Positions 8,114 through 8,506 of a stretch of 10,150 bases of DNA are shown piece by piece. The DNA is from a virus. The DNA lies in the UHGV virus genome UHGV-0195723; one strand, given 5' to 3'. The notes beneath the pieces were generated by a model, which was not told the origin of the DNA, ran no database searches, and was given only the letters and a program-made list of their open reading frames with translations. Position numbers and translations under genes: made by a program. Each line of letters begins with the position of its first letter. The first letter of the stretch is position 1.

Positions 8114-8506
8114 AAGCCATGATTGCCGGCGTTCTCCCTGCGCAGCGGGGAGGATGCCGGGAAGCAGGGCGAATCTTCATTTTGCAGCTATCTGCCATCG
8201 CTGGCTTTTCTGTTTTTTGATGCCGTCAGGCATGGGAGGCGCTTTGCGCCGGAAGCCCCGCAGCGAAGCGAGGACTCAGAAAGCGTTATGGCGTCAGCCA
8301 TAATATTCCCGTCACTGCAAAGCCTGTTTTTTGCGGCCGCAGGTCATTCAGGCATCGACATGGCCAGTTGATGAAATTGATGCCTTACAGCGTGTGTGAC
8401 AGAATGGCGATCGCCGGTGACAGGCTTTCATATCAACCCGGGGTGCGGTTTGTTTCTTCCTGGTATCCGGCAACAGATTCTTTCCGAATGGGCTTATCTG
8501 CGCACT
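8114..8506 (+). other. Structured GC-rich intergenic region between gene IV and dif (candidate packaging signal / attP-proximal region)
   Basis: Roughly 58% GC by eye versus roughly 40-45% for the phage genes. Hairpins at 8126-8160 (CCGGC/CTCCC nested stems), 8238-8250 (GGCGC-TTT-GCGCC) and 8286-8303 (TTATGGC-GTCA-GCCATAA). Palindrome GGCGATCGCC at 8406-8415. Inverted repeat TGCGCAC-TG-GTGCGCA at 8499-8514 abutting the XerC arm. Confidence 0.4.

Follow-up and report, generated by a model that had tools for sequence, protein, structure and literature searches.

What does a filamentous prophage carry between its secretin gene and the dif site of its host, in a stretch where no gene is evident and the composition departs from that of the phage genes? 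The question is raised by positions 8114-8506 of the virus genome UHGV-0195723, whose full 10,150 nucleotides (nt) are referred to here as the window. A sequence-only reading had described this segment as GC-rich and dense in hairpins, and had proposed that it could be a packaging signal, an accessory structure of the attachment site attP, or the remnant of a second element integrated at dif. Herein we find that the segment is phage DNA, and we consider it probable that it forms an intergenic region made up of a string of cis-acting elements working on the packaged + strand of an If1-like filamentous phage (the + strand is the packaged strand in Inoviridae), with a core at 8213-8332 that is a plasmid-type G site, serves as the phage complementary-strand origin and is primed by DnaG. 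This core, a primase priming signal of ~115 nt to judge from its sequence relationships, is likely the main content of the segment, and had been missed in the sequence-only reading. Its parts are as follows:

8213-8332, + strand: core module, the proposed complementary (minus)-strand origin
8220-8224/8229-8233, + strand: hairpin SL-A
8238-8242/8246-8250, + strand: hairpin SL-B
8251-8275, + strand: invariant block GGAAGCCCCGCAGCGAAGCGAGGAC, holding the mini-hairpin GCGAAGC at 8263-8269
8286-8292/8297-8303, + strand: hairpin SL-C
8314-8324, + strand: 11-mer ACTGCAAAGCC
8315-8317, + strand: CTG, the predicted primase start trinucleotide, 11 nt after SL-C

When ~8211-8332 was compared by BLAST with 5,426 complete E. 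coli genomes, 242 of these matched at ~85% identity, mostly on IncX-like plasmids of ~33 kb, and the core module likewise matched 1,559 plasmid records in PLSDB at ~85% identity, mostly from Klebsiella, Escherichia, Salmonella and Enterobacter; among the matches listed it lies almost always in unannotated DNA. Among phages, ten IMG/VR contigs of inovirus size and further dif prophages carry the module at 91-98% identity. Across 13 related inovirus loci its position and strand do not vary: it always lies between gene IV (the secretin gene, encoding pIV) and attP/dif, and on the rep/pIV strand wherever these genes were detectable. Since its flanks differ among phages, and since their Rep proteins diverge (42-94% identical) while the module stays similar (91-98%), we regard it as a discrete, exchangeable cassette.

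When 25 distinct copies were aligned, three hairpins, a GCGNAGC mini-hairpin, the invariant block and a 3' motif CCC-N-CTGC-NARRCC emerged, with the CTG retained in 24 of the 25. Across the hairpins 97.7% of cells are paired and nine of the 19 pairs show compensatory changes, compared with 22-39% of cells paired in controls slid by 1-3 columns. On four of the five measures none of 500 shuffles came up to the values of the alignment, while 16 of 500 did so on the fifth (further pair types). The phage copies contribute compensatory changes of their own, in SL-B (L078 and L130) and as a T.G wobble in SL-A. A covariance model built from 23 copies, with the window included in training, scores the module at 136 bits, by construction, and finds no other match above 8.5 bits in the window, which shows that the module is unique there. 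A variable-gap motif pattern was also run, and one of its 120 matches was genuine, the rest being due to chance.

The identity of this module is suggested by its plasmid homologues. Plasmid G sites are the primase-dependent ssi signals of R1/R100, R6K, F and ColIb, described by Masai and Arai (1989), Nomura et al. (1991) and Tanaka et al. (1994); they were discovered by artificial insertion into origin-less M13, and DnaG primase starts at CTG. Homologues on IncFII plasmids lie beyond oriR, on the strand opposite repA (L004, L261), and the IncFII(K) element is 84% identical to the window's module by BLAST, a test that is independent of the covariance model. The CTG stands ~436 bp from the far edge of oriR in IncFII(K) and ~370 bp from it in R100. 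Compared by eye, R100 presents the order ATGCCGC-loop-GCGGCAT, GGAAGGCGG[33 nt]CCGCC, a GCGTAAGC mini-hairpin and CCCTGCCAGACC, that is, a similar architecture with a 33-nt insertion in SL-B. Masai and Arai, in 1989, and Bernander and colleagues, in 1992, are said to have found that the leading strand of R1/R100 is primed by primase alone at a "G site", and we take the place and strand of the IncFII/R100 homologue to be those of this primase-only start site. Tanaka and colleagues reportedly showed in 1994 that plasmid G sites consist of two conserved domains around a dispensable "domain II", which is presumably where the 33-nt insertion of R100 fits. By position, strand, architecture by eye and the earlier literature, the case that the core module is a classical G site is strong but not closed. 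It shares with plasmid G sites an ~85% identical element beyond oriR (in IncFII(K)) and beside IncX relaxase genes and elsewhere, as well as the hairpins, the conserved blocks, the 3' CTG and action on one strand; it differs in its setting, an inovirus genome whose packaged strand carries it between gene IV and attP, where its job would be viral-strand conversion rather than the start of a leading strand at a theta origin.

A second line of comparison leads to phage G4. The 11-mer ACTGCAAAGCC recurs without change at G4 3995-4005; in the G4 record a primer is annotated at 3970-3997 and the complementary-strand origin at 3998. Only this exact position at the G4 origin makes the shared 11-mer meaningful, and such a landing would be rare (~5e-4 by our own estimate). 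Both are structured single-stranded signals in the viral strand, both would be expected to be primed by host primase alone, and the G4 start hairpin holds GCGAAAGC, a mini-hairpin of the same GNA-type class as the window's GCGAAGC, near the start (PMC13037366). The two differ in that no further sequence similarity exists, G4 belongs to the Microviridae, and the spacing from hairpin to CTG is 2 nt in G4 and 11 nt in the window.

The comparison with G4 also bears on whether the core could instead be a PriA-dependent primosome assembly site of the phiX174 type, or a DnaA-box "A site" loading DnaB, which we consider unlikely. A PriA site finds some encouragement in GCAGCGAAGCGAGGA, which resembles the AAGCGG-type motifs of ColE1-type n' sites, and in a module copy on a ColE1-like Rop plasmid (L006), and it would leave the role of the core as complementary-strand origin unchanged. 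It is opposed by the IncFII position and strand, which match the primase-only start site, and by the conserved CTG 3' of the hairpin together with the identical 11-mer at the G4 primer start; for an A site, the module holds no DnaA box.

Several observations weigh against reading the core as a primase-dependent G site, and they are best considered together. An 11-mer shared with some place in G4 arises in 91 of 500 shuffles, and the covariance model finds no match at the G4 origin, although this is expected, as phage and plasmid G sites differ. On R100 the model reaches just 11.3 bits (E 0.27), so that the link to the classical G site depends on place, strand and a comparison of architecture by eye, and the priming function itself would follow from homology, position and strand. 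The fold of the module is unremarkable on both strands (z -1.4 on the given strand), and because these z-scores are unexceptional the case for its hairpins rests on covariation and not on stability. The strand preference within the pairs is weak as well, with six G.T wobbles versus two A.C cells on the given strand. Finally, in the IncX plasmid NZ_CP110120.1 (L002) the module (4002-4125) lies ~140 nt from an opposite-strand TATCCTG|C that follows an inverted repeat (~4230-4310) and looks like an RP4-type nic region beside ddp1/taxC. If this nic reading is right, the IncX module appears to sit on the non-transferred strand and to prime replacement-strand synthesis in the donor, and the plasmid role would therefore not simply be the priming of the incoming strand. 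The same plasmid holds a second, weak G-site-like match (23 bits, 492-638, - strand), 3.5 kb away and on the other strand.

In the phage, placement of the proposed origin on the + strand is supported because the module lies on the rep/pIV strand, recurs once per unit of a tandem prophage and is present as a variant in a free circular relative; the + strand assignment itself is supported by collinearity with the If1 record. By the order that the If1 homology gives, the module comes after the packaging-type hairpin, a slot corresponding to that of the minus origin in Ff phages, where the order is gene IV, packaging hairpin and then minus origin (hairpins B and C), so that the proposed role and the genome position are alike. 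The means of priming would be different: the Ff minus origin reportedly imitates a promoter, with sigma-70 RNA polymerase as the priming enzyme (work of Higashitani and colleagues, 1997), whereas a promoter scan found no sigma-70-like site on either strand in 7900-8700. An Ff-type RNA-polymerase minus origin was rejected on this ground and in the absence of any Rfam family, the Rfam 15 scan having returned only two chance-level matches (E = 3). If1, the closest sequenced relative, has no G site according to the covariance model. The Frpo/ssi promoters of the F and ColIb-P9 leading regions are comparable, being single-stranded DNA whose folded form initiates RNA synthesis on an incoming strand, but they are ~330 nt long, carry -35/-10 boxes and use RNA polymerase (PMC7690428; PMC11541004). 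A Frpo-type promoter was likewise set aside after the negative promoter scan and with no similarity evident by eye to published Frpo sequences (PMC11541004).

If the core is a G site of this kind, the following sequence of events can be proposed. After infection, SSB would coat the + strand while the three hairpins and the GCGAAGC mini-hairpin remain folded and present CTG 8315-8317 to host DnaG. The primase would start a short RNA opposite T8316, copying towards SL-C (8286), and DNA polymerase III would extend this primer round the circle to give the replicative form. Synthesis would be directed away from attP, which lies ~175 nt 3' of the G site, and because of this direction the attP(+) hairpin would be the last part to be made double-stranded.

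That the core might instead be inert in the phage, a plasmid passenger or recombination scar with the true minus origin elsewhere, is suggested by its GC content and ~85% identity to plasmid DNA, which point to a horizontal origin, and by extra plasmid sequence that some relatives share (GGTCGAAGACGAAAGAAC). We nevertheless hold this to be quite unlikely, as a G site is kept in this slot, on the same strand, by no fewer than three phage lineages whose Rep and secretin genes are very different, the phage copies carry the compensatory changes given above, and the segment yielded no alternative candidate for an origin structure. One of the subtypes concerned is R100-like: it occupies the slot and strand in two further lineages (L263 and L264), the free circle of E. 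coli A37 and the tandem prophage of E. coli 300709, at 27 and 24.6 bits, respectively. A slot that is filled by a different subtype would seem to need such a signal rather than to harbor a passive passenger.

The DNA that follows the module varies more. Between the G site and attP, the window carries the following:

8333-8490, + strand: "type A" spacer

This spacer is restricted to the window's phage lineage (SW071618, Klebsiella plasmid-borne copies, L132, L135, E. coli A37 and others), has no plasmid counterpart besides the plasmid-borne phage copies, and folds no better than its shuffles. Other relatives carry a different spacer of 121 nt (type B: L003, L129, L131, L133, L136 and L137), and GGCTTATCTGCGCACTGGTGCGCATAA is kept across both types. 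The type B phages share GGTCGAAGACGAAAGAAC with IncX plasmids (L003 9157-9176; L002 4163-4180), ~45-60 nt downstream of the G site; it holds a GTC-GAA-GAC mini-hairpin and is missing from the window's phage.

A further alternative is that the core acts as RNA, either as a 3' untranslated region or terminator of the gene IV transcript or as a small RNA. T-runs flank it on the + strand (8213-8218 and 8327-8332), and hairpins with G.T (G.U) wobbles would fit an RNA of the same sense equally well. Copies such as those of IncFII and IncN lack the 3' T-run, however, the T-run on the 5' side comes before the hairpins, no Rfam match was obtained, and the copies stand in unrelated transcriptional contexts, including the strand opposite repA beyond oriR. 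We thus rate an RNA role as very unlikely and return to the single-stranded DNA signal as the preferred reading of the core.

Whether the segment belongs to the phage at all was decided by comparison with an empty site, a tandem prophage array and a free circular relative. The window is arranged as follows:

ends at 1116: hipA, left flank of the prophage
1195-1226: hybrid dif site (attL), GGTGCGCATAA-TGTCTACGCG-TTATGTTGAAA
1285-1626 and 1774-2082, - strand: two small open reading frames (ORFs), start of the filamentous prophage
2155-3342: G2P-type replication gene (Pfam G2P_X_C and Phage_CRI)
between the replication gene and the secretin gene: coat and assembly genes
6800-8113: secretin gene (gene IV; Pfam Secretin), with its TGA at 8111-8113
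8114-8506: non-coding segment, the exact gap from secretin stop to dif
8507-8534, + strand: chromosomal dif, regenerated (attR), an exact match to the 28-bp E. coli dif GGTGCGCATAATGTATATTATGTTAAAT

No exact dif is expected by chance, and the one at 8507-8534 is identical to the empty-site sequence. To its right follows ordinary E. coli chromosome (99.8% identity over the full length, with a match in 5,171 of the 5,426 genomes). The empty dif locus of E. coli DETEC-P881 consists of hipA, a 78-nt spacer, dif and a right flank identical to the window's outer flanks, and from this comparison the insertion is therefore window 1206-8517, or 7,312 bp. The sequence-only reading had allowed that the segment might be ordinary chromosome at empty dif loci, but nothing like it is present at the DETEC-P881 locus. 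It had also suggested a look at related prophages: the whole segment is held by one of the 5,426 complete E. coli genomes (97.5% identity), in which a tandem prophage array occupies dif and the segment recurs once in every 7,187-bp unit, between the secretin gene and the phage-phage junction. The same layout is found in a relative that exists as a free 7,439-bp circle (NZ_CP195780.1, L263), deposited as "plasmid unnamed4" of E. coli A37; the record carries coat, zot, secretin and rep genes as well as an intact attP, and what it represents is a related inovirus in its circular replicative form. Since it is absent at the empty dif, recurs once per tandem unit and is present in the free circular relative, the segment is the phage's own. 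Among named phages If1 comes closest, being collinear on the + strand and 73.8% identical over 78% of the phage.

A second dif-integrated element or satellite, of which all or some of the segment would be a remnant, is most improbable: the composition of the segment is unlike the phage body and tandem or satellite insertions at dif are known (PMC4246890), yet no extra dif-like site stands between gene IV and 8507 and each phage unit has one dif-like junction, the segment lies inside the tandem repeat unit and the free circular genome, and the 5' hairpin is contiguous with If1 homology.

With the segment assigned to the phage, its composition and folding can be considered. As the sequence-only reading had it, the GC content (0.55) exceeds that of the phage body (0.412 for 1230-8113), a value attained by just 0.2% of 393-nt windows in that body; the sole other peak at 0.55 (~4790-5180) lies inside a 430-amino-acid ORF (4146-5438), the presumed attachment protein. 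The high GC appears to reflect structured modules, with a core exchanged with plasmid DNA of 55-59% GC. The absence of a credible ORF is also borne out, as the four mechanical ORFs that overlap the segment (8123-8371, 8028-8303 and 8368-8517 on the + strand and 8348-8587 on the - strand) match nothing in Pfam or PHROGs, and no PGAP gene is annotated at this position in the closest relative. BLASTN of the segment against 50,697 phage records gave no match. Folded whole as single-stranded DNA it has a z of -2.1, with three of 100 shuffles equally stable, and the excess is located in 8114-8212 (z -3.4, 0 of 200 shuffles). The fold of the 3' part is unexceptional (z -0.15), and the hairpins of the centre find their support in covariation instead.

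Two elements lie in the 5' part or at its edge:

8126-8160, + strand: 16-bp hairpin (5' arm 8126-8141, loop GCA 8142-8144, 3' arm 8145-8160, three G.T pairs)
8194-8218, + strand: small hairpin GCCA-TCGC-TGGC followed by a T-rich run, a weak terminator-like element as read from the sequence

The + strand of 8114-8212 folds at -26 kcal/mol, to which the z of -3.4 belongs, while the - strand reaches -18.1 kcal/mol (z -0.84). If1 homology extends 58 nt beyond the gene IV stop and spans the 16-bp hairpin; the 5' arm is identical in If1, and the 3' arm has five differences, all of them switches between G.T and Watson-Crick pairs that would be mismatches on the - strand. Because all five substitutions preserve pairing on the + strand only, the hairpin would act in that strand. 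In Ff the packaging signal (hairpin A) is located directly after gene IV, and by analogy the hairpin at 8126-8160 is most likely a packaging signal and/or an end-of-gene-IV structure, for which we consider it a candidate. It resembles hairpin A as a long, imperfect + strand hairpin of strand-specific stability right after gene IV, and differs from it in being shorter (16-bp core) and in lacking sequence similarity to Ff. The packaging role that had been suggested for the segment suits this hairpin, which follows gene IV, is kept in If1 and is + strand-specific. The small hairpin at 8194 was not called by the terminator scan, its stem being shorter than 5 bp; its T-run (8213-8218) is the 5' edge of the G-site module and is kept in most plasmid and phage copies. 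In two related phages (L078 4733-4770 and L264 8727-8765), the tip of a hairpin after gene IV is CCCCGCAGC-TTT/TAT-GCGAGGAG, a close variant of the heart of the G site.

At the other end of the segment lies part of attP, with its partner elements at the opposite end of the prophage:

8491-8517, + strand: 5' side of the base of the single-stranded attP(+) forked hairpin, with the TGCGCAC arm at 8499-8505 and the XerC arm GGTGCGCATAA at 8507-8517
1229-1265: GC-rich hairpin after attL
~1266-1290: second, inverted dif-like site

The inverted repeat that had been noted here, TGCGCAC (8499-8505) and GTGCGCA (8508-8514), is present, but it cannot form a separate hairpin, as its 2-nt spacer is unable to close a loop; in the circular phage both arms sit in the 5' side of a much longer hairpin, whose partner side is at window ~1266-1300. 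When the junction was reconstructed (8480-8517 joined to 1206-1310), it folded at -38.1 kcal/mol (z -6.4, 0 of 200 shuffles), and the real phage-phage junction of the tandem prophage gave a z of -6.7. By its predicted fold, attP is of the CTX type: its XerC and XerD arms pair and its centre does not. CTX-type integration is described as irreversible, and a lone prophage such as the one in the window may need a tandem copy in order to produce phage. The enterobacterial phages CUS-1 and Ypf are listed in the CTX-type class (PMC4246890). The likeness to attP(+) of CTXphi, YpfPhi and CUS-1Phi consists in two inverted dif-like sites that make the + strand a forked hairpin, and in integration at dif with dif regenerated at attR; only 8491-8506 of the segment takes part, the remainder being at 1195-1300. 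The suggested attP accessory structure accordingly fits the last ~16 nt with the XerC arm and not the rest of the segment.

A few observations on related loci and on the motifs themselves are recorded here. Klebsiella sp. LY carries four tandem phage copies, 97.5% identical to the window's phage in the segment region, on a conjugative plasmid of 316 kb (NZ_CP022441.1, L005; also NZ_MH681289.1), which implies either integration at a plasmid Xer site or a mis-assigned replicon. Two annotated hypothetical proteins, one placed by PGAP across the G site of NZ_CP195780.1 (4246-4398) and one just past the G site of PEC148 (L003, 9118-9249), are probably spurious. Tatumella sp. TA1 plasmid pTA1 (CP033728.1, L258; 49 kb) holds five module copies on both strands, at 17931, 20000 and 37209 (+) and at 14267-14389 and 15557-15677 (-). 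In a scan of genome contigs, CCCCGCAGCGNAGCGAGGA also turned up in repeat families that are unrelated, among them those of Bacillaceae and Planctomycetota. The motif CCCCGCAGCG-N-AGCGAGGA, which is the invariant heart of the G site, makes up multi-copy repeats in Bacillus, Psychrobacillus, Sutcliffiella and a metagenome-assembled genome of Planctomycetota, usually inside a longer palindrome (L138-L257). No convincing match to the f1-like plus-strand nick sequence was found in the segment, the lone loose match being at 5367, inside a gene. A 50-nt non-coding block at 1720-1769 is 92% identical to If1 5052-5101, with surrounding homology of 71-75%. We regard this block, which includes the hairpin GTTCGGG-GTTCTGTGAC-ACCCGAAC, as a candidate for the plus-strand origin, or the nick site, of the G2P-type Rep.

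Primase-dependent priming signals as a kind, and the attP class, are already known, and the textbook pairing assigns RNA polymerase to Ff, primase to G4 and the primosome to phiX174. The apparent novelties are the native use of a plasmid-type G site as an inovirus complementary-strand origin and the exchange of cassettes with IncX, IncFII and IncN plasmids; our literature search, which covered few older journals, found mention of neither an inovirus-native G site nor phage-plasmid exchange of such cassettes. The comparison with the empty site fixes the boundary of the prophage, and the odd composition of the segment is explained without a second element, as a stack of cis-acting single-strand signals. 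The same structured element is conserved in 1,559 plasmid records, where it is mostly unannotated or lies under doubtful "hypothetical protein" calls, and its distribution is evidence for the exchange of cis-acting replication modules between phages and conjugative or resistance plasmids. The core also provides a concrete origin candidate for the inoviruses that integrate at dif in E. coli and Klebsiella, which have been little characterised. More speculatively, and as a suggestion that we regard as doubtful, the dif-integrating enterobacterial inoviruses as a group may have swapped an RNA-polymerase origin for primase-only G sites taken as IncX/IncFII/IncN cassettes, with attP duplexed last. 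If this were true, attP would be kept single-stranded longest, which would set the balance between Xer-mediated integration of single-stranded DNA and formation of the replicative form.

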